Virus record (IMG/VR): IMGVR_UViG_3300010885_065725
Direction: 5' to 3' (one strand)
DNA length: 64,000 bases
Source of the DNA: a virus
Lineage: Duplodnaviria; Heunggongvirae; Uroviricota; Caudoviricetes
The notes beneath the pieces are model-generated. The model did no database searches and was not told where the DNA came from. It was given only the letters and a program-made list of their open reading frames with translations. This document shows, one piece after another, positions 2,236 through 60,757 of the stretch. How positions within the stretch are numbered: the stretch's first letter is position 1; each line of letters opens with the position of its first letter. The translations under genes and the position numbers were made by a program.

Positions 2236-2874
2236 TTAAAATATTTCTACGATAATATCTTCTATGTCAGTAATTTTTTGTGAAAGAAGAATATCTGCAG
2301 AAGTTTGTTTTTTTACTGCAATCTTTATGTCATATTCTACATAGTCATTGCCACTCATTTCTCGCAGGATATTACAGTATTCTTCGTTTACCAGACCTAT
2401 TTCATGTTCCTGAACAACAAAAATGTCTTCCATTGCAACTGCAATATATTTTTGTTTTAGAAACATCTGCTTTTTTTCTGTTGCAATTCTTCTTACCATC
2501 GCATAATATGCAATAGTGGTCATGTAAGGGAATGCACCTATAGTCTTTTTTCCGGTTCTCTTAGAGATTGCTTCAGGATTATATCTATCGAAGTATCTTA
2601 TACAATTTTCTATTGCATCAGAAATCATTTCGTCCTTGAACGAATAATTCTGAAAACATGGCATATTTGCTATTCTTGTTGCAATGAGAATGATACATTC
2701 TCCGAGATATCTTGTTTGTGTAATAGAAGGATCAAGTTTTTTCAATTCGATCCATTTTATTGCTTCTTCTGTAAATTTTTCGTTGTCAATATAATTTTCT
2801 GTCTGCTTCTTGAATTTCGTTGTCATTGTATTATTATCCATTTTATATATAAAGAAATAGTGGTAGGAGATCAT
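2236..2874 (-). CDS. 55: late-transcription sigma factor (T4 gp55 family)
   Basis: Translation aligns by eye to T4 gp55 (GECIILIATRIAN..FKDEMISDAIENCIRYFDRYNPE..TIAYYAMVRRIATEKKQ vs T4 [57 protein letters not shown]). The true start may be the internal MDNN. Confidence 0.7.
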   Translation of the reverse strand: MISYHYFFIYKMDNNTMTTKFKKQTENYIDNEKFTEEAIKWIELKKLDPSITQTRYLGECIILIATRIANMPCFQNYSFKDEMISDAIENCIRYFDRYNPEAISKRTGKKTIGAFPYMTTIAYYAMVRRIATEKKQMFLKQKYIAVAMEDIFVVQEHEIGLVNEEYCNILREMSGNDYVEYDIKIAVKKQTSADILLSQKITDIEDIIVEIF

Positions 2875-4915: not shown

Positions 4916-5557
4916 ATCTTATGAATCCTGTCCGAATTGATCATCGAATTGGGCATCAACAGATTTCTTTTTTGCTTTTGCAGTATCTTCTGTCTGTTTT
5001 TTTCTTACTTTTTCTAATGCAACATTTGTTTTTTCTAATTGCTCTACTGCAACAGAATTTTGGTTTGCTCTTATTTCCTGCAGAACTGCCTTTTCTGTTA
5101 CTTCTGCAAGTGTCACTTCCTTTTTCTTTTCTGCAGTACTATTTTTGAAAAAGGAAGTTAAAAAAGTTATAATCAAATTTATTAGTGTCATAATATATGT
5201 AATTGTGTAGTTATTTTTTCGCGTTTGCAAGTAATTGCTGCACAGCAATCTCAATTGCAAGATTAATTGTAGAAGTTTTTATATCTTTCTGAGAATTTAC
5301 TAATTCTGCACCAATCAACTTAAACGCAGAAACGAATTTATCTTTAGAAGTAACGATAGAAGGATCTGCTTCAATAATATGTACTGATCTAACTGCAATA
5401 GGAATAACAATTAATAATTCTTGTTGCAGAGCAGTTCTGAACAAAACAGCAAATGCTTTTCCGATAGTGCCCAAATTTTTTAATAGAAATGTGATAATAG
5501 CTTGTGTCATTTTTTTTCCTTTATGATAATAGAATAATGCTTAATATTTATGTTTTT

Positions 5558-5746
5558 TTACCACATACCGAACCATATACCGAATCCATGAACAATTGCA
5601 ATAGGAAAAGCAATTGCACCTGCAATCAAAAATCCCCATTGTTCTGCTTCAATACAATTCAATACATGAGTTCCCCATGCAGAAATATTTACAATTAAAA
5701 TTGTTCCTACAATTAATACATATTGCATATCTTTATTTGGTTTCAT
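5558..5746 (-). CDS. small membrane protein
   Basis: 62 aa with two hydrophobic helices (VLIVGTILIVNI..; FLIAGAIAFPIAIV). Confidence 0.3.
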   Translation of the reverse strand: MKPNKDMQYVLIVGTILIVNISAWGTHVLNCIEAEQWGFLIAGAIAFPIAIVHGFGIWFGMW

Positions 5747-6139
5747 AATGTTTTCTCACTTAACAATTTTTTTTGCATATTTAAAGTTTCAAAATATTTA
5801 ATTATTGCTTTTATTTTTAAATTGTTCATATCAAAATAAATATAATTTTCTACTGCATTCAATATTTTTTCTTTTTCGAACGAAAATACTTCTTCTGAAT
5901 TATGCATAATCATCTGATCTTCTGATTAGATAAGAATCGTCTCCTAGAAGTTCCCATAACAATTTTTCTCCTATACAGAGACCAGTTGCTTCGATGATGT
6001 CATCTGTCAATTCAATGAACAGATCACTGTCTTCATTTTCTTGAACTTCTATTTCCCATGTAGGATTTTCGTTTTCTTCTGCCATATTATATTTCTCTCA
6101 TTTTAAAATTAAATAATTACGTTTTTTACTATTATACCA

Positions 6140-7849
6140 CTATTTTTTAAACATTGCAAATAAATTTGTTGTTTTCTTTGATTCATATCCTATAGAATTT
6201 AAAATTTTGGTCAATGGAGCAATGAATGCTTTTTCAAATTGCATATTATAATCTATATATTTTTCTAATTTAAATTCTTCTGGTAGTTCATCAGGAAATG
6301 CAATAATATTTTGCTGTAATGGATTAGGTTCTCTCATATAACAATATTTTACCTTGTCTCCGTCCACAATGTCGCTGTATATATGGGCAATTTTAAGTTT
6401 TTTTACTGTTCTATTGAAATTTATTGCTCCTCTTACCTGTGCAGGACATCTTTTCTTTACTCCATATTCAGAATAGTATTTCATCATGTTATCTATTCCT
6501 CTTGGAAATGAGATTTCGTGTACAGGTCGATTCATAAAATCTTTCTTTACGTCTTCAATATATTTTATGACTGTATCATTATCAGATGTCAGAATCAATT
6601 CAATAGAATTCTTCAGAGATTCTCTTATACATTCTGGAGTAGAAGATCGAACAACTTCTAGTCCCATTATCTTAATGTAATATGGGTCATACCATATGCC
6701 CTCAGAATTGTGTACCAACATGGCATACTTTTTCTTTGCAGTCCAAAAAGAAGTAGAAGATATTGCTTCTCTCTTGAAATGTAATTTATGTTCGTATCCA
6801 TTAGTATATTCGTACAATTCTGTATAACATTTATCGAACACCTTAGAAATTTTCTTTTCACATACTGCATCAAGAAATTCTACTTTTTCTTTTGTGGTAG
6901 CATCAGATTTAAATTTAGAAATAAATTCATTCATGTCCAGATATATCGAATCAGTATCTTCGTATACTACCCAATCTTTTGTGACAGGAGTATCAAATAA
7001 ATTATTCATATAATTATTAATATACTTTTCGCCATACTTCAATGCCATCTGCCCTGATGCCGTGATCGCAAGAGCAAGACGCAGATCAAACATCTTGAAA
7101 TATACATTAGAAATACCTCCATAGAGAGAATTCAATGTCAATTTCAATGCCTGTTCAAAATTGCTGTACATTGCTATCTCATTATCAATTTGTTTCCTTT
7201 CTTCTGCAGAATATTCTCCTACTATTCGCTTCAGGTCTAACATTTTCCCTTTATATGTCTTCCTGTCAGATAACATTTTCTTACACAGTATAGGCAAAAA
7301 TCCTTCTACATTCTTGTCGAACATTGCACCATTTGCCGCAATACAAATGTTCTCTTCTTTCAAATATTCCAGATCATATTCTTTTTCGACAAAAGAAGCG
7401 ATAGAATTATTTTCTTCGCTCATACCAACAAATGTTTCAGGAGAAATATTATATTGACAAATTAAACTAGGATAGAGAGCCGTTGCATCAAAAGATACTA
7501 TCCATTTTTTTAAGCCATGCGTAGGTTCTTTTACATATGCCCCTGCAAATTTTTCTGCCTCTACCTTTTGTATAGAAAATGGAGGAATTGTATTACTTTC
7601 TAGTAAATGATTGTTAATGATTGCTTCCCATGTCTTCACAGGAGAATAACAGTCACCATAGTTTATTTTTGCAATATATGCAATCTTTAGTGCAATCTGA
7701 ATGAGTGTAAGTTTTTCTTCTAGTCTCTTCACAAGATTAGTGTCTTGTATATTATATAAGACAAATTTGTTAAACGCTCTTTGTTTCAGGTCTTTATCTA
7801 ATGCACCATATTCCGCAAGAAGTTCACTATCACTCATTTCTTCAAACAT
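6140..7849 (-). CDS. 43: DNA polymerase, C-terminal polymerase-domain cistron (43B)
   Basis: Family B polymerase motifs: KxxxNSLYGG (KLTLNSLYGGISNVY) and YEDTDSIYL (YGDTDS motif C). The N-terminus aligns to T4 gp43 at about residue 370 (YNIQDTNLVKRLEEK..PVKTWEAIINN vs T4 YNIIDVESVQAIDKI..PIKTWDAIIFN). Length 569 aa; together with the 328-aa 43A this gives 897 aa, close to T4 gp43 at 898 aa. Confidence 0.8.
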   Translation of the reverse strand: MFEEMSDSELLAEYGALDKDLKQRAFNKFVLYNIQDTNLVKRLEEKLTLIQIALKIAYIAKINYGDCYSPVKTWEAIINNHLLESNTIPPFSIQKVEAEKFAGAYVKEPTHGLKKWIVSFDATALYPSLICQYNISPETFVGMSEENNSIASFVEKEYDLEYLKEENICIAANGAMFDKNVEGFLPILCKKMLSDRKTYKGKMLDLKRIVGEYSAEERKQIDNEIAMYSNFEQALKLTLNSLYGGISNVYFKMFDLRLALAITASGQMALKYGEKYINNYMNNLFDTPVTKDWVVYEDTDSIYLDMNEFISKFKSDATTKEKVEFLDAVCEKKISKVFDKCYTELYEYTNGYEHKLHFKREAISSTSFWTAKKKYAMLVHNSEGIWYDPYYIKIMGLEVVRSSTPECIRESLKNSIELILTSDNDTVIKYIEDVKKDFMNRPVHEISFPRGIDNMMKYYSEYGVKKRCPAQVRGAINFNRTVKKLKIAHIYSDIVDGDKVKYCYMREPNPLQQNIIAFPDELPEEFKLEKYIDYNMQFEKAFIAPLTKILNSIGYESKKTTNLFAMFKK

Positions 7850-8001
7850 AAAATCTCCAATAATAAATTTATACTATACTACAAAACATATTAAAATAAA
7901 TAGTAAACTTTTTAATTTTTATAAATAATATTAAAACAAAAAAATGCCAATCACGGGTTTCTGACACCCTATTGGCTCTAATACTATAACGGAGTATCAG
8001 C

Positions 8002-8757
8002 ATGAATATTTATACGACTATCATACCAACCTATCTTTACATCAAAAGGCATTCAGTTACCAAGTTAAAATACTTCGGTAAAACTTCCTTAGATGATCCA
8101 ATAAAATATCTAGGCTCAGGAACCTATTGGACAAAGCATATTAACAAACACGGCAAACAATTCGTTGATACTATTTGGTTATCTGATTTATATACTGATA
8201 TATCTATCTCCGAACACGCTCTTCATTTTTCGCACGAAAATGATATAGTTAAATCAGACGAGTGGGCTAATCTAAAACTAGAAAATGGTTTAGATGGCGG
8301 AGCATATTTACCATCACAACCTACAGTAGAAAGAATTTGTTATTGTGGAAATATTTTTCAAACTAAACACTCTAGCAAAAAGGCTACTTGTGGGTATTCC
8401 TGCTCAAATACCATTACTGCTAATAAAAGAATACCAATCGCATTAAATAATAATATCTATATATTTAAAAACCTATTCAATAACGAAATTATACACTCTA
8501 CTATTTTTGATTTTAAAAAATATTCTTTTCTTTCTGCAGCAAATATAAATCATTTAGTACATGGAAATCATAAAATAATAAAATATTGGACTATTTTTGA
8601 TACTGTAGCAAATAAATTTAGAAATGAAATTCCAAATAAATCTCCCCCAAAACCATTAACTAAAATTTGCTCCCATTGCAATAAAGAAATATCATATGCA
8701 AATTATGTTAGGTGGCATGGGGATAATTGCAAAATGATATCATTCATTATGAATTAA
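8002..8757 (+). mobile_element. free-standing GIY-YIG homing endonuclease gene (Seg-like)
   Basis: N-terminal GIY-YIG-type motifs PTYLYIKRHSVTKLKYFGKT...YLGSGTYW. Opposite strand to the polymerase cistrons it separates. GGAG ribosome-binding site upstream. Its 3' end overlaps the 43A stop. Confidence 0.75.
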
Positions 8758-9726
8758 ACCTCTCAATAAAAGCTCTTTTTTTATCAAAGTTCTCCTAAGC
8801 CCCAGTTCATCTATTTCTTGATGATCTGGGCGGATTTTTTCTATATCATATTCACCAGAATAAAATTCTTTGAATGTCTTATAGGGGTTTTTTAATTTGT
8901 TTTGTTTTAATTCATAATATCCAATCGTATCTAATTTATAATTTTCTCTTGTAATAAAAGTAAACTTCTTATATAAATTTAAGTAGTCAAGATGTTGCAC
9001 TCCATATATGTCATATGTGTTTACTATTTTTACACTCTTATCTTTTTTCTTTGTTCTTATTTCTCTTGCGCTCACTACTCCAAAAGGAGAAAGTCTTTTT
9101 GCATATTCTACTCCGAGAATCTCAGAAATTCTATTGTAGATATATGGAATATCAAATGATTCTGTGTTCCATCCGGAAACAATATCAGGATAATGAGAAG
9201 ACCAGTATTGTACGAATTTACGCAGAAGAACTATTTCTCCGTCACATTCTACATAATTAATGGATTCGTCCCCTGTATACGGCTTATATCCAAATGTTAT
9301 TATTCCATTCTTACTGGAACACAAAGTAATAAGAGTAATTTTTTCTTTTGCCGTGTCCGGATGTGGAAAACAATCTCCTACTTCTGTCTCAATATCAATA
9401 AAGCACATATCAATATCATTAATATTATACTTTACTTCTTCTTTATATTCTTCTGCAAGGAACTGATAGCTATAGTTACCATTCCCGTATAACTTCATGT
9501 TCTCTATATCTTTGTGTCGCTCAATAAAGCTCTTACATTCCTTTATGGTAACAAAACTATGCTCTACTAAAGGTTCTTTATATATCGTACAATGAGTAGC
9601 ATCTAGTTGAGATTTTGTGTATATTTTTGGAGAGAATTTAAACTTACTTCTGGTTCTTTCTCCATTTTCAATATACGAATAAAATAATGTGTCGCCAATC
9701 TGTCTAATATCAGTATAAAATTTCAT
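8740..9726 (-). CDS. 43: DNA polymerase, N-terminal 3'-5' exonuclease-domain cistron (43A)
   Basis: Exo I motif FIDIETE, and SGWNTESFDIPYIYNR, RLSPFGVV, LDYLNLYKKFTF align with T4 gp43 SGWNIEGFDVPYIMNR, RFSPIGRV, LDYLDLYKKFAF. Ends where 43B begins in the T4 alignment. Confidence 0.8.
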   Translation of the reverse strand: MKFYTDIRQIGDTLFYSYIENGERTRSKFKFSPKIYTKSQLDATHCTIYKEPLVEHSFVTIKECKSFIERHKDIENMKLYGNGNYSYQFLAEEYKEEVKYNINDIDMCFIDIETEVGDCFPHPDTAKEKITLITLCSSKNGIITFGYKPYTGDESINYVECDGEIVLLRKFVQYWSSHYPDIVSGWNTESFDIPYIYNRISEILGVEYAKRLSPFGVVSAREIRTKKKDKSVKIVNTYDIYGVQHLDYLNLYKKFTFITRENYKLDTIGYYELKQNKLKNPYKTFKEFYSGEYDIEKIRPDHQEIDELGLRRTLIKKELLLRGLIHNE

Positions 9727-9929
9727 CGATAGTCAAAAATATCTATTTGTGTATATTCCTTTCTTTTTTTGGTATTATGCATTCTATTGTTTTCACAATA
9801 TTCACATCCTCCATTATTTCTGCAGGACTTATCACATTTTTTTGAACCATAATATTTCTTTCTATGATCTTTTCTATTAGGATATTCTTTATCAAATGAC
9901 ATAATTTTCTCTTTTTTTATATTTAACAT
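9723..9929 (-). CDS. small Cys-rich (zinc-binding?) protein
   Basis: 68 aa with CDKSC...CEYC. Confidence 0.3.
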   Translation of the reverse strand: MLNIKKEKIMSFDKEYPNRKDHRKKYYGSKKCDKSCRNNGGCEYCENNRMHNTKKRKEYTQIDIFDYR

Positions 9930-9962
9930 ATATACACATAATACAGTATATTTTATGCACTG

Positions 9963-11681
9963 TCAAACAGAAATTTCTTCTATCAACGAAAAATTTCCTG
10001 TCTTTTCTGCTTTAAGATGTCGCCATTTTTCTGGAACATCCGAGATAGTATGAGAAACAATAAAAATATTTCTGTCGCCCATGTCATCTAACAATTTAAC
10101 AATTGCATCTGTTCCTACAGTGTCCATGCTACTGCTGAACAATTCATCGAATATCAGAAGGTTTGTATTGCAAGTATTCTTTCCTTCTGATATCTTACGG
10201 AACGCAAATAATACTGCAAGATTAATTCGTTGTTTCTCTCCTTCACTGAAATTTTGATATTTCATCAGATCTCTGTGTCGTGCCTTGATTGTCTCACCAA
10301 AACCTTCGTCCAGAGTAAAATTAACATAGAAATCAAGTTCTTGTAGATAATAATTTATCAATTGGTTCAATATAGGAACATATTTCTTTATAATATTAGA
10401 TTTGATTCCGGTATCTTTTAGAAGTTCTGCACAAACTTTATAATTATATATCTGTTGCGAAAGAATTTCTTTTTTCTCCTGCATATCAATAATTTTCTTT
10501 TCTATATCAATAATATCATTAGATTCTTTTTCTGTATTGATAGATTCCAATAATTTTACCAATTCCTTCTGTTGTGAACCAATAGTCCAAACATTTTTGC
10601 TCTTCAATTTATCTAGTTCTGCAATCTTATTGTCCTGCTCTCTTATTTTATTCATTACAACAAGAATAGCATTATATTCTTCTTCATATTTCTGCAATTT
10701 TGTGTCTGCTTTCTGGATTGCATCATTCAATGTAGAAATTTTTGTTTCGAACTGCTCAAGTTTCTGTTCTTTTAATTCTGAATCAATCTGTTGTGTGCAT
10801 GTAGGACATGAAGTTTTTGTATGGAAAAATTTGATTTCCTTTTCTTGTTCTCTGATCTGATACAGATATAATTTTTTATATTCTACTATTTTAGATTTCT
10901 TTTCTGATATGTCAGGCATCGCAGAAGTATTTTCATATAGATCAGTACGAATTTTTATGTGTGATTCTATTGACATATCAATACTTTCATTATCTTTTTC
11001 GCACACATCAATATTTTTTATCAAATCATTTTTTGTGTTACTTCTGTCCTGCTTAATTGCATCAATATATTTCTGTAATGACCATACCTTTTCTGTTGCA
11101 ATCTCTATTGCAGTATCTATTTCTCTTTTGTCCTGCACAACAGAATCATTCTGATCTTTAAGCAATTTTTTCATTGCCGTAAATACTTTTATGTCAAGCA
11201 GATCTTCTATGATAGTCCTGCGATCCCCTGCAGACAATTGCATGAATGGAACATACGATGCCGAACCAAGAATGACCAGTTGCGTAAAAGATTTATAATT
11301 CAATTTCAGTATCTGATCTTCTAGTATCTTCTGATAATCTTTTGTTGCTGCGTCCTGATTCTGTAATATTCCGTTCTCATATATCTCGAATATTGCAGGT
11401 TTTATTCCTCGAATAATTTTATATTCTTTTGTGCCAATATTGAAATGTAATTCTACTACACAATTCTTTGCATTAATAGAATTTACTACTGTTCCTTTTG
11501 TTATTTCTCTGAATGCTCTATTATAGAGCACAAAACATATCGTGTCCAGAATGCATGTAGATTTCCCACTACCATTTTTCCCAGAAATAAAGGTAACAGG
11601 AGAAGAATCAAGAGATATCTCTGTAGGAGCATTGCCATACGAAAGGAAATTCTGAAAAATAATTTTTTTGAATAGTATCAT
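9963..11681 (-). CDS. 46: recombination endonuclease ATPase subunit (gp46, Rad50/SbcC-like)
   Basis: N-terminal FQNFLSYGN...FISGKNGSGKST (Walker A), long coiled-coil middle, and C-terminal LLIFDE plus signature region. Length 572 aa vs T4 560 aa. Confidence 0.8.
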   Translation of the reverse strand: MILFKKIIFQNFLSYGNAPTEISLDSSPVTFISGKNGSGKSTCILDTICFVLYNRAFREITKGTVVNSINAKNCVVELHFNIGTKEYKIIRGIKPAIFEIYENGILQNQDAATKDYQKILEDQILKLNYKSFTQLVILGSASYVPFMQLSAGDRRTIIEDLLDIKVFTAMKKLLKDQNDSVVQDKREIDTAIEIATEKVWSLQKYIDAIKQDRSNTKNDLIKNIDVCEKDNESIDMSIESHIKIRTDLYENTSAMPDISEKKSKIVEYKKLYLYQIREQEKEIKFFHTKTSCPTCTQQIDSELKEQKLEQFETKISTLNDAIQKADTKLQKYEEEYNAILVVMNKIREQDNKIAELDKLKSKNVWTIGSQQKELVKLLESINTEKESNDIIDIEKKIIDMQEKKEILSQQIYNYKVCAELLKDTGIKSNIIKKYVPILNQLINYYLQELDFYVNFTLDEGFGETIKARHRDLMKYQNFSEGEKQRINLAVLFAFRKISEGKNTCNTNLLIFDELFSSSMDTVGTDAIVKLLDDMGDRNIFIVSHTISDVPEKWRHLKAEKTGNFSLIEEISV

Positions 11682-42607: not shown

Positions 42608-42712
42608 GTTTTTATTTACCTTTAATAGTTAAAATTTTTCTAATTATTAGGACATAAATTATATTTATGTCCACATCTATAATATTTATATAAATTTATT
42701 TTTTACAATAAA

Positions 42713-58677: not shown

Positions 58678-58941
58678 ATGCAGTATGAATATACATGTGG
58701 AAACTGTGATCATATTTGGGAAAGACAATTGAAACTTTCTGAATATAAAACACCTATCGACAGCCCTTGTCCTTCATGCGAAGAATCTGGCAATATTTCA
58801 CAATATTTTGGTGGAATGCCTGTCCATATAGATTCACATAAATTAGGAATAAAAAAACCTGATGCAGGATTCCGAGAAGTTATGGCAAAAATACATGAAA
58901 AATCTCCAGGAAGTGAATTAAAAAATTACGTAAATTGGTAA
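58678..58941 (+). CDS. zinc-ribbon protein (FmdB-like)
   Basis: YTCGNCDH...CPSCEE double CxxC. Confidence 0.4.
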   Translation: MQYEYTCGNCDHIWERQLKLSEYKTPIDSPCPSCEESGNISQYFGGMPVHIDSHKLGIKKPDAGFREVMAKIHEKSPGSELKNYVNW

Positions 58942-59741
58942 CTCCCCAAACACAAAAACCATTAAGGAAATTTATGGCACGTAAACCTAAAATTGTGGAT
59001 AAACATTTTGAAGATATCTCACAATATAAAGTAGATAAAGAGATAAAGGAAAATCAACCCTCTAATAGACTTAAGATTAAGATAGAAGATCTAAAAACAT
59101 TAAAACCATTGACTAAAAATCAAAAGTTATTTTTTGATTCTTATGCAAATGGTGATGAAGCAATTATGTTATATGGTTCTGCTGGTACAGGTAAAACTAT
59201 AATCTCGATTTATAGAAGTTTAGAAACTGTACTTGATAAAGGTAATCCATATAGTAAACTCATTATTGTTAGACCTGCTGTTGCTAGTAGAAATCAGGGG
59301 TTTCTGCCTGGGGATGCTGCAGAAAAATTAGCAGTATTTTGTGAGGCATATATCAATATATGTTCTACATTATTTAATAGAAGCGATGCTTTTACTCGAT
59401 TAGTCGAACAAAACCATCTTGAAGTTGTTAGTTCTAGTTATCTTAGAGGGTGTACTTTTGACAATGCTATCATAATATTTGAAGAATTTCAGAATGAAAC
59501 GTGGGCAAATATACAAACTGTTATATCCAGATGTGGGAAAAATACTAAACTTATTTTAGCTGGTGATTTTAAACAATCAGATTTGAATCAAAGTAGAAAT
59601 GATCAAACTGGATTTAATGAATTGCTTAAAGTTGCTAAGATAATGGACGAATTTACTCTTATAGAATTTGATTCATCCGATATCGTTAGATCAAAGTTTG
59701 TTAAGAATTTTATTATTGCTTGTGAGAAATTGGATCTTTAA
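58935..59741 (+). CDS. phoH: PhoH-like ATPase
   Basis: LYGSAGTGKT Walker A, GFLPG, and IFEEFQNETW..LAGDFKQSDL match PhoH-family signature regions. T4-like phages commonly carry phoH. Confidence 0.7.
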   Translation: MVTPQTQKPLRKFMARKPKIVDKHFEDISQYKVDKEIKENQPSNRLKIKIEDLKTLKPLTKNQKLFFDSYANGDEAIMLYGSAGTGKTIISIYRSLETVLDKGNPYSKLIIVRPAVASRNQGFLPGDAAEKLAVFCEAYINICSTLFNRSDAFTRLVEQNHLEVVSSSYLRGCTFDNAIIIFEEFQNETWANIQTVISRCGKNTKLILAGDFKQSDLNQSRNDQTGFNELLKVAKIMDEFTLIEFDSSDIVRSKFVKNFIIACEKLDL

Positions 59742-60564
59742 TGCACACCCACCCACTGTGTGATTGCGTCTTATTATTTGCGATATTGCACATACTACTA
59801 TAATTGAGTGCATGGTCTATACAGAAATGTTTCAGACCATGTACTTTATATATGTCTCCAGTAGGAGAAGTTACTATATATGATTTTCTACTAGAAATGC
59901 CAATATTGATTTTTATTTCTTCTGATCTTTTTTTCCCTTTACCAGAAATAGACTGCTTTCTTTTTGTTTCTTCCGATCTTCTCAATCCTTTTGCATTACC
60001 TACCAGTTCCCCGGACAAATATCTATGATCTGTTTTATCTACATAATGTATTATCCCAGTGATATCTTTTGTAGTCACTTTATTTTTAGCAACACTAATC
60101 AATTCCCCTGACAAATATCTATGGTCTGTTTTATCTATTAGAAAATTATTCCCAATTTTATCTTTTACTGCAACTTTTCCTTTACCTCCATATCCCCCAC
60201 CACCATCTATTCCATTTTCCAATTTTAAATTAGCCCATTTATCAGATTTAACTATATCCCAATGTTCTGATATTAATATAGAAAATTCTATTAGAATTTT
60301 TTCATTTATAAACAAATCAGAAAGCCAAATAGTTTCAACAAACTGAGTACCATGTTTTTTTATATGTCTTGTCCAATATTTACCTGATCCTAAATATTTG
60401 TTTGGATCTTTCTTGGTAGTCTTTCCAAAGTATTTTAATCCTGTGACAGAGTGTTGTTTTATATAAAGATATGTAGGCTTTAAAACTTTATAAATAGATT
60501 TGCTGGGCATAATTGTTTCCTTAATGATTAATAGAATGTTTAGAATAGGTAGATGTTTCAGCAT
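59713..60564 (-). mobile_element. GIY-YIG homing endonuclease gene (paralog of 8002..8757)
   Basis: N-terminus PTYLYIKQHSVTGLKYFGKTTKKDPNKYLGSGKYWTRHIKKHGTQFVETIWLSDL is near-identical to the first homing endonuclease (PTYLYIKRHSVTKLKYFGKTSLDDPIKYLGSGTYWTKHINKHGKQFVDTIWLSDL). C-terminal repeats (IHYVDKTDHRYLSGEL twice) suggest DNA-binding modules. Convergent with phoH, overlapping it. Confidence 0.7.
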
Positions 60565-60757
60565 CGTGACCTATATCCTATTTATACATATTAAAAATAA
60601 AATATTGACATTTAATAATAATTATTATATAATTGTTCCTTGTGTATTCATATAGTTTTTTTATCTTAAGCAAAATTTAAGAAACTTTTTATATTGTATT
60701 GTTTGTATATAATGGTTAATGTGAGTTAAGAAAGGTAGTACATTGTTGTGCTACCTA

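Follow-up and report, generated by a model that had tools for sequence, protein, structure and literature searches.

Can a DNA polymerase gene that has been broken within the coding region of its proofreading site still give a working enzyme, and what would keep such a break in place? The question is raised by gene 43 in a stretch of 64,000 nucleotides (nt), referred to here as the window, from the tailed-phage record IMGVR_UViG_3300010885_065725. Gene 43, which encodes the T4-type family B DNA polymerase (PolB) gp43, lies on the minus strand as two open reading frames (ORFs), 43A and 43B, and between them on the plus strand stands an ORF that we describe as a putative homing endonuclease gene (HEG). 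We put the probability at about 70% that the two polymerase products form a two-subunit PolB that is split within its exonuclease domain and reassembles non-covalently, the split being an old, selected module around a gap in which nucleases are swapped. The gp43 proteins of phages RB69 and T4 serve as the residue reference throughout.

The split is not an artifact. A sequence-only reading of this DNA had predicted the two polymerase ORFs with coordinates, strands, and lengths that proved exact, and the opposite-strand ORF that it saw overlapping the 3' end of 43A is also present, with 251 amino acids (aa) and an overlap of 18 nt. In Pfam searches, the PolB exonuclease model PF03104 matches 43A (E 7e-21) and PF00136 matches 43B (E 4e-29), while phrog_262, the PHROG profile for phage DNA polymerases, is matched by 43A over positions 7-307 and by 43B over positions 300-852. 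Proteins identical to the 251-aa and 328-aa products occur in the same layout on two other contigs from other samples (L006 and L007). Because independent samples yield identical proteins and the interrupting block is 1,089 nt long, both an assembly artifact and the sequencing frameshift that the earlier reading had already thought unlikely are excluded. To judge by its ORFs, gene 43 is two independently translated cistrons.

The break divides the proofreading site itself. In RB69 gp43, the catalytic residues of the exonuclease are D114/E116, D222, and D327, with R338 at the C-terminal end of the exonuclease domain (PMC3564110). An alignment to RB69 gp43 (phmmer against the PDB) places 43A on residues 3-305 and 43B on residues 310-901, and a MAFFT alignment that includes T4 and unsplit relatives alongside RB69 locates the break at RB69 ~313-318, equivalent to T4 ~310-315. 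Set against the catalytic residues, this position is inside the exonuclease domain and divides the active site; by sequence comparison, Exo II lies on one side of the break, and on the other the Exo III helix follows within a few residues (Table 1). Neither piece therefore has all four catalytic carboxylates, three being on 43A and the fourth on 43B. 43B also has every polymerase motif in intact form: A (DATALYPS), B (KLTLNSLYG), and C (DTDS). A YNIND sequence at residues 100-104 of 43A fits the Yx3D form of Exo III but precedes Exo I and was rejected as a candidate. These alignments, which the sequence-only reading had itself proposed, revise its picture considerably. It had let the pieces meet at about T4 residue 370 and had taken 43A for the exonuclease and 43B for the polymerase domain, whereas Exo III is in 43B and the cut lies within the exonuclease domain, not between domains. 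The likeness in length to T4 gp43 that it pointed out (897 versus 898 aa) is a coincidence, since unsplit close relatives have 830-844 aa and the excess over them consists of 65 residues of extra sequence, a tail at the end of 43A and a head at the start of 43B.

Table 1. Coordinates of the split gene 43, its interruption, and associated features in the window.
Feature	Position	Strand	Description
Gene 43A	8740..9726	-	328 aa; N-terminal domain and exonuclease part with Exo I and Exo II
Gene 43B	6140..7849	-	569 aa; Exo III helix, rest of N-terminal domain, palm, fingers, thumb
HEG ORF between 43A and 43B	8002..8757	+	251 aa; convergent with 43A, 18-nt overlap (8740-8757)
Inserted block	7771..8859		1,089 nt: 43A tail and stop, HEG, hairpin, AT-rich spacer, GGAG and ATG, 43B head
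43A C-terminal tail	8743..8859	-	39 aa (S290-E328); absent from unsplit polymerases
43B N-terminal head	7772..7849	-	26 aa (MFEEMSDSELLAEYGALDKDLKQRAF); acidic, isoelectric point (pI) 4.2; absent from unsplit polymerases
Exo I FIDIE	9388..9402	-	43A residues 109-113; matches RB69 D114/E116 (alignment, motif search)
Exo II NTESFDIPY	9142..9168	-	43A residues 187-195; matches RB69 D222 (alignment, motif search)
Exo III YNIQD	7742..7756	-	43B residues 32-36; matches RB69 Y323/D327 (alignment, motif search)
Ribosome-binding site GGAG of 43B	7855..7858	-	5 nt upstream of 43B ATG; read from sequence
Ribosome-binding site GGAG of HEG	7991..7994	+	7 nt upstream of HEG ATG; read from sequence
Hairpin GCCAAU.GGGU...ACCC...AUUGGC	7946..7976	-	U7 after it on gene-43 sense strand
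TATAAATA box (T4-type late-promoter consensus)	7920..7927	+	74 nt upstream of HEG start; putative promoter
Best sigma-70-like promoter of region	9938..9966	-	TTGACA-17-TATTAT, 11/12; consensus match
Second Seg-like HEG family member	59713..60564	-	283 aa; N-terminal domain 67% identical to gap HEG

Comparison with unsplit relatives bounds the interruption. The nearest, P0241/L012, is 79% identical overall and 81% in the 43B part; its N-terminus is cut by the contig end, and it reads continuously across the junction. P0244/L013 is a complete unsplit protein of 844 aa, 59% identical. In blastn, window 9516-8860 corresponds to L012 62-718 and window 7770-6155 to L012 732-2344, with sharp boundaries that are the same against L013, and the 1,089 nt of the window (~7771-8859) stand in place of 13 nt, or 4-5 codons (EKDW in L012). 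The intact relatives without insertion that the earlier reading had suggested seeking are thus at hand, and the insertion site is bounded. The unsplit junction sequence is TFRDFYEKDWDTFVLYNIQD, the unsplit allele of L012 and L013 reads TTCTATGAGAAGGACTGGGACACATTCGTC around the junction, and the intact allele has L012-type sequence around TTCTATGAGAAGGACTGGGACACATTC; 43A keeps ...TFKEFY and runs on into the tail, and in 43B the head is followed by NKFVLYNIQD.... Among the nearest relatives, split and unsplit polymerases interleave (79% unsplit, 60% split, 59% unsplit).

If 43A is ended at D294 and 43B begun at K28, the joined sequence is exactly collinear with the unsplit relatives, and phage polymerase genes often carry group I introns, as does one split relative described below (L015). 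It might then be supposed that the interruption is removed by intron splicing or by a split intein and that a single gp43 is made, an idea to which we give almost no credence. An Rfam scan of window 5500-10500 on both strands returned no match at E<=1, whereas the same method finds the L015 intron, and in all relatives both extensions are kept at the level of the translated peptide, the tail with a stop codon of its own and the head with its own ribosome-binding site and ATG. Neither 43A nor 43B has a Pfam intein or Hint domain, split-intein halves would have to be longer than extensions of 39 and 26 aa, and direct reading of the junctions found no intein-like pattern of Cys, Ser, or Thr nucleophiles.

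We consider it very improbable, too, that gene 43 is a decaying pseudogene or a chimeric assembly and that another polymerase replicates this genome. Only 64 kb of the genome is visible, and three short contigs break at or near the hairpin between the HEG and 43B, which makes the assembly ambiguous there. Against this stand the recovery of identical 43A and HEG proteins from independent samples, the intact state of every exonuclease and polymerase motif, the conservation of the architecture in polymerases that are 34-62% identical in the 43A body, and a normal T4-like replication-gene context. Gene 43 adjoins gp46/47-like genes, which is its usual neighborhood in T4-like phages, and the setting is that of a T4-like myophage, with gp46/gp47-like SbcCD, a helicase, a major head protein, portal, tail sheath, and PhoH nearby. 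By its sequence, this phage is far from any cultured relative: megablast of the window found no match, and the best polymerase matches in GenBank are cyanophage enzymes at ~42% identity.

The tail and the head bear on how the two proteins might come together. The proximal half of the tail is acidic and its last 20 aa (GLRRTLIKKELLLRGLIHNE) are basic, with a pI of 10.9; because of the acidic half, the whole 39-aa tail has a net charge of -2, and the pattern of opposite charges therefore applies to the tail end. Tail ends (the last ~20 aa) are basic in 11/11 cases examined (pI 9.7-11.7) and heads are acidic in 4/4 (pI 4.1-4.4). Across split relatives, the tail follows the pattern FKEFYSGEYD[IV]...L..RT.IK.EL..RG[LI], and the head motif [ML]SD.EL[LS]..Y...D.[IL]K...[WF] is kept in L008, L010, and L015. 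At conserved tail residues, codons differ synonymously at 10 of 17 positions from L008 and at 8 of 20 from L015, which indicates selection on the peptide; the tail shows signs of purifying selection.

Two polymerase N-terminal pieces from the representative library, P0367 (526 aa) and P0372 (739 aa), read in frame from a tail-like segment through a short turn into a head-like one, with no stop, HEG, or restart between them. These are either healed splits or the ancestral loop state, and the existence of a natural tail-head fusion argues that the tail and head helices are neighbors in the folded enzyme. We also considered that the two extensions might be degraded copies of the native Exo III region. 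Both MAFFT and BLAST align the tail onto the native helix, but a hidden Markov model (HMM) of the native junction, made from 27 non-redundant unsplit polymerases, led us to reject this, with tails and heads scoring no better than shuffles and the long L010 head as the sole marginal case (6/300 shuffles).

An AlphaFold2 (AF2) model of 43A joined to 43B as one fused chain has a predicted local distance difference test score (pLDDT) of 88.9 and a predicted template modeling score (pTM) of 0.82, and Foldseek superimposes it on RB69 gp43 with a template modeling score (TM) of 0.83 (E 1e-66). Within the tail, residues 298-304 are disordered, while residues 307-321, the conserved basic segment, form a helix with a block-mean pLDDT of 56-74. 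The head is modeled as the start of one long helix that runs into Exo III, its pLDDT rising from 78 to 95.

Alternatively, the tail and head may be neutral leftovers of an insertion, the pieces associating through the native exonuclease-domain interface alone and the charges being incidental. The disordered stretch and the moderate confidence of the modeled tail would suit such leftovers, as would the diverged split relatives P0142, P0207, P0208, and P0216, whose tails are 13-20% identical to that of the window, and the split NrdA of Aeromonas phage Aeh1, whose tails are dispensable for heterodimer formation (PMC3045599). A basic tail end and an acidic head nevertheless occur in every split relative examined, the diverged ones included, and the synonymous differences at conserved tail residues indicate that the peptide is selected. 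With a head motif kept between polymerases whose 43A bodies are 34% identical, and with natural in-frame fusions of tail and head, we regard the neutral account as unlikely.

The split recurs well beyond the window, in polymerases 34-62% identical in the 43A body. The layout of 43A, antisense ORF, and 43B is also present in L008/L009, L010, L015, and the P0130 contig. In L008/L009, antisense ORFs lie between a 43A of 325 aa and a 43B of 571 aa, and the gap of L009 holds an HNH-like ORF. L010, a 194-kb contig, has a 43A of 333 aa (34% identical), an antisense ORF with a weak NUMOD3 match, and a 43B of 593 aa. On L015 and the P0130 contig there are three polymerase pieces, and an antisense ORF overlaps the end of each upstream piece. 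In L014, the HEG has decayed to an ATG-stop and a C-terminal zinc-finger remnant, while the tail, hairpin, and ribosome-binding site are kept. The occupants of the gap are thus a Seg-like GIY-YIG ORF in the window, a classical GIY-YIG ORF in L015, the HNH-like ORF of L009, the weak-NUMOD3 ORF of L010, and the L014 remnant.

When the C-terminal 70 aa of 43A were searched against the whole library, 19 representatives at 50% identity came up; in 13 of the 19 the match runs to the very end of the protein, which puts the split in at least 13 representative clusters from uncultured phages. Among the best 120 homologues of 43A, none is a full-length polymerase; one group of ~320-345 aa stops at the same place as 43A, and a more numerous set, of ~480-500 aa, ends at the fingers tip, although the list contains contig-end truncations of unsplit genes, including some of the ~330-345-aa matches. 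The lengths of 76 of these 120 fall between 440 and 570 aa, many ending near the fingers tip, and 19 of the 120 have [KR][KR]G[LIVM] within their last 14 residues. Going by these sequences, fingers-tip splits appear to be very common in uncultured relatives. Cultured phages with the exonuclease split were not found among the top hits of 2,565 matching GenBank records, and a marine-virus record in GenBank (L016) that aligned into the tail turned out to hold an intact 830-aa polymerase.

On L015 (positions 6001..11354; JGI 3300001765 contig MIS_1000455), the polymerase gene is in three or more pieces. Its 43A has 320 aa; after it come, in this order, a classical GIY-YIG ORF of 279 aa in antisense orientation, a middle polymerase piece of 232 aa with the C-terminus ...ELKRRGVYTH, another antisense ORF, HNH-like and of 154 aa, a short exon, a group I intron, and the last polymerase piece. 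The intron (RF00028, 91.8 bits, E 2.5e-23, positions 9209-9425) lies inside the Kx3NSxYG motif. This gene combines the exonuclease-domain split (site 1) with a fingers split like that of phage 25 (site 2) and an intron.

Did the present nuclease create the split? The sequence-only reading had held the HEG responsible, and a recent fission, with the GIY-YIG gene inserting into an intact gene 43, would agree with an unsplit closest relative (L012, 79% overall) and with the sharp boundaries of the block; in the proposal of Crona et al., such an insertion brings in the tails along with the endonuclease (PMC3045599). However, relatives with the same split and with homologous tails and heads carry unrelated nucleases or a decayed HEG, and the tail and head also exist uninterrupted in P0367 and P0372, so the split module predates the present HEG or is separable from it. 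The window could instead have acquired the module by homing-type gene conversion from an already split allele, and creation of the split by the nuclease now in the gap seems to us quite doubtful.

Tail and body identities are discordant among the split polymerases. L014/P0123 is 40% identical to the window in the body (53% at the nt level) and 73% in the tail (79% nt), with the same codon at 21 of 27 conserved residues, and P0186 is 36% identical in the body and 61% in the tail; the closest split polymerase, P0122, has 62% in the body and 46% in the tail. L014 and the window also share the hairpin sequence, and the zinc-finger remnant in L014 is related to the window HEG. Discordance of this kind is, we infer, what nuclease-triggered recombination with co-conversion of flanking sequence would produce. 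Together with the wide distribution of the HEG family and its second copy in the window, it lends indirect support to homing.

The identity of the putative nuclease as a GIY-YIG homing endonuclease is supported at the level of fold. The earlier assignment to this class stands as regards the fold, the Seg-like relatives, and the opposite strand; the window protein itself has no match to PF01541 (GIY-YIG), which 8 of 46 family members match weakly (best E 0.012), nor to any other Pfam or NCBIfam model, and Foldseek found no match for it in the PDB. It belongs to a family of 422 homologues with an almost invariant N-terminal domain of ~100 aa and variable C-terminal modules. NUMOD3 is present in 27 of 46 members and had no match in the window copy, which keeps the C-terminal CxxC...H...C zinc-finger-like end of the family. 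Relatives in GenBank (27-37% identity) are annotated as Seg-like or SegD, and the N-terminal domain is Seg-like with a GIY-YIG fold (beta-beta-alpha-beta-alpha core). By motif reading, YLY, YFG, Glu 78/79, and the invariant N90 are plausible equivalents of I-TevI Y6/Y17/E75/N90, and the position of I-TevI R27 appears to be Tyr.

Read on the opposite strand, the HEG stop TAA (8755..8757) is TTA, the codon for Leu324 in the tail motif RGL, and the stops of the L014 remnant and the L015 HEG likewise complement TTA Leu codons in the tail; convergent genes may have in this a simple means of sharing their ends. The second copy of the HEG family in the window (Table 1) is convergent with a PhoH-like gene (58935..59741, plus strand), whose 3' end it overlaps by 29 nt. 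As the neighboring PhoH is full length, this copy sits between whole genes and splits none.

The expression of 43B is less simple than the sequence-only reading had it. That reading made 43B an independent cistron with its own ribosome-binding site and promoter; the GGAG is present where it should be, but the promoter is not supported, since the proposed GTTTAC (7908-7903) and TATAAAT (7873-7867) lie 29 nt apart and the interval from the hairpin to 43B gave no site in a sigma-70 scan. Overall, the scan gave 15 sites against 14.9 expected, with no enrichment. The best sigma-70-like site of the region is upstream of a 68-aa ORF that overlaps the 43A start, and this candidate promoter likely drives 43A and possibly the whole 43A-43B transcript, making transcription of 43B by read-through from 9966-9938 possible.

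A hairpin upstream of 43B, also noted earlier, is present and significant (dG -17.3 kcal/mol, z -4.1; 0/200 shuffles fold as well), although it spans 7946-7976 and not 7925-7975. Followed by U7 on the sense strand of gene 43, it resembles a terminator, and it may end or stabilize the 43A message; on the other strand, the same DNA is part of the HEG 5' leader. Nearly the same sequence recurs in L014, whose polymerase body is only 40% identical. Three independent short contigs (L014, at 2601..2743, and L006 and L007, at their 5' ends) end at or beside the hairpin region (window 7915-7980), which suggests population heterogeneity or a sequence common to several genomes. A dispersed repeat was considered as the reason for these breaks and rejected, the hairpin being single-copy within the window.

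The HEG has a putative promoter of a different type. The late-promoter consensus TATAAATA has 32 matches in the window against 15.5 expected, a number reached in 0/100 shuffles, and it stands, in matching orientation, upstream of structural genes and of the two HEG copies (60579-60586, minus strand, for the second copy). Matches lie just upstream of head, portal, and sheath genes, for example at 42683, 43494, 46139, 48088, 48837, and 51256 (-). This distribution fits a T4-type late promoter in this phage and suggests that the HEG is probably transcribed late from its own box, while early gene-43 transcripts would run antisense through it.

We propose that 43A and 43B are translated separately and would reassemble non-covalently into the normal PolB fold, with a composite proofreading site made of three carboxylates from 43A and one from 43B. 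Reassembly would depend mainly on 43B, whose Exo III helix would return to its place in the 43A exonuclease fold, and the basic tail helix lying alongside the acidic head helix may help. The split, tail, and head together would be an old, selected feature of one lineage of polymerase alleles, and the gap a landing pad for interchangeable free-standing nucleases, of which the present one is an occupant. Nuclease-triggered recombination with flank co-conversion would move the module, or parts of it, between polymerase genes.

Several points weigh against this proposal. Assembly, composite exonuclease activity, and the role of the tail and head are all inferred. The AF2 model, as a single chain, presupposes that the pieces associate, and its tail helix is predicted with only moderate confidence (56-74). 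The case for transfer comes mainly from one short contig (L014), and 43B combines a terminator-like hairpin upstream with the lack of a sigma-70-type promoter. The comparison with Aeh1 may be imperfect, since the tails there are not needed for the heterodimer. The window covers 64 kb of the genome, and a second polymerase may be encoded elsewhere.

Split T4-type polymerases have been described before. In Aeromonas phages 44RR, 25, 31, and 65 and Acinetobacter phage 133, gp43 likewise comes from two cistrons, always broken at the fingers tip (Petrov et al. 2006, 2010, as summarized in PMC2988022 and PMC3061061), and the Aeromonas 43A and 43B products are reported to co-purify and to be active. 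The sequence-only reading had likened the window to the Aeromonas 25/44RR arrangement, and the likeness holds for the two cistrons but not for the position of the break: the 43A of 44RR has 498 aa against 328 aa here, where the break comes ~180 residues earlier, between Exo II and Exo III. Like the window, phage 25 has a seg-type GIY-YIG free-standing endonuclease gene in the gap. Here, in contrast, the HEG runs antisense to gene 43 and into the 3' end of 43A, and no Rfam match in window 5500-10500 corresponds to the group I intron in the 43B of phage 25. The split of 44RR is without an HEG, as is that of L014 for the exonuclease split.

The nearest cultured relatives of this polymerase, in cyanophages ACG-2014f and S-CREM2, are also made from two cistrons, annotated in S-CREM2 as 'DNA polymerase subunit A/B', but are split at the fingers tip, unlike here (43A of 491 aa and subunit A of 487 aa, respectively). 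Cyanophage subunit A ends ...E[LM]KRRG[LV] and subunit B starts ...LS[ND].EL..., resembling the basic end and acidic start in the window, and the gap holds small same-strand ORFs where the window has an antisense HEG.

By analogy, the mechanistically closest case is nrdA-a/mobE/nrdA-b of Aeh1 (Friedrich 2007; Crona et al. 2011). Its oppositely charged, insertion-born tails are essential for activity; they are unnecessary for the heterodimer and needed for higher-order assembly (PMC3045599). There, as here, an essential enzyme gene is broken around a free-standing HEG and active-site residues are separated, the extensions are absent from intact homologues, and there is no RNA or protein splicing. 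The pI values of the extensions are 10.4 and 3.8 in Aeh1 and 10.9 (last 20 aa) and 4.2 here. The Aeh1 enzyme differs in being a ribonucleotide reductase, and its HNH nuclease MobE is encoded on the same strand and co-transcribed. The role of the tails is experimental in Aeh1 and predicted from sequence here, whereas the tail/head module described here is conserved across many lineages, with several different nucleases. On this analogy, reassembly probably proceeds through the charged extensions. Crona et al. predicted charged tails in other fragmented genes, as a general means of offsetting the damage done when mobile nucleases fragment a gene, and the T4 topoisomerase genes 39/60 with mobA are an HEG-associated split of another replication enzyme, again with tail-like extensions (PMC3045599).

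The 'fractured genes' of environmental phage-like sequences (Dassa et al. 2009, PMC2677866) resemble the window in having halves of a conserved enzyme gene, a free-standing endonuclease gene between them, and a hairpin upstream of the latter; they are trans-spliced via split inteins, whereas 43A and 43B lack intein motifs and have extensions of 39 and 26 aa. Two-polypeptide PolB enzymes with other break positions are those of Methanothermobacter (palm), Rhodothermus phage RM378 (between N and palm domains), and Nanoarchaeum (split intein), and none of these is reported to part Exo III from Exo I/II. A literature search of incomplete coverage turned up no earlier case broken between Exo II and Exo III. 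What we describe is a new position for a known phenomenon, the HEG-associated split of an essential phage gene.

The fingers-tip splits of the cyanophages and L015 have the same basic-end, acidic-start motifs as the exonuclease split. The tail end (EL.RRG[LIV]-stop) and head start (Met..[LM]SD.EL) might accordingly be imagined as portable adaptors that travel with the nuclease cassette, a fingers-tip module having been copied ectopically into the exonuclease domain, though we think this improbable. An HMM of 56 site-2 tails scores 9 of 16 site-1 tails above the 99th percentile of controls, over ~10 residues only, and the window's own tail is not significant against it; that the site-1 module was copied from a fingers-tip split is speculation from sequence likeness. 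If true, homing endonucleases would carry their own 'antidote' peptides and split essential genes at new positions, the split form would spread by homing, and gene fission would be transmissible.

The non-covalent two-subunit polymerase would mark a second permissive fission point in PolB, one that could be useful for engineering split or conditionally proofreading polymerases. The split alleles form a broad and diverse natural data set in which the generality of charged tails can be tested, complete with fused controls and nuclease-less variants. They also carry a warning for annotation, as gene callers report split genes of this kind as truncated polymerases. For the phages themselves, a split through the proofreading site is conserved across many uncultured lineages, and the gap in this essential gene would be a common landing pad for unrelated HEGs, with signs of the split passing between alleles.

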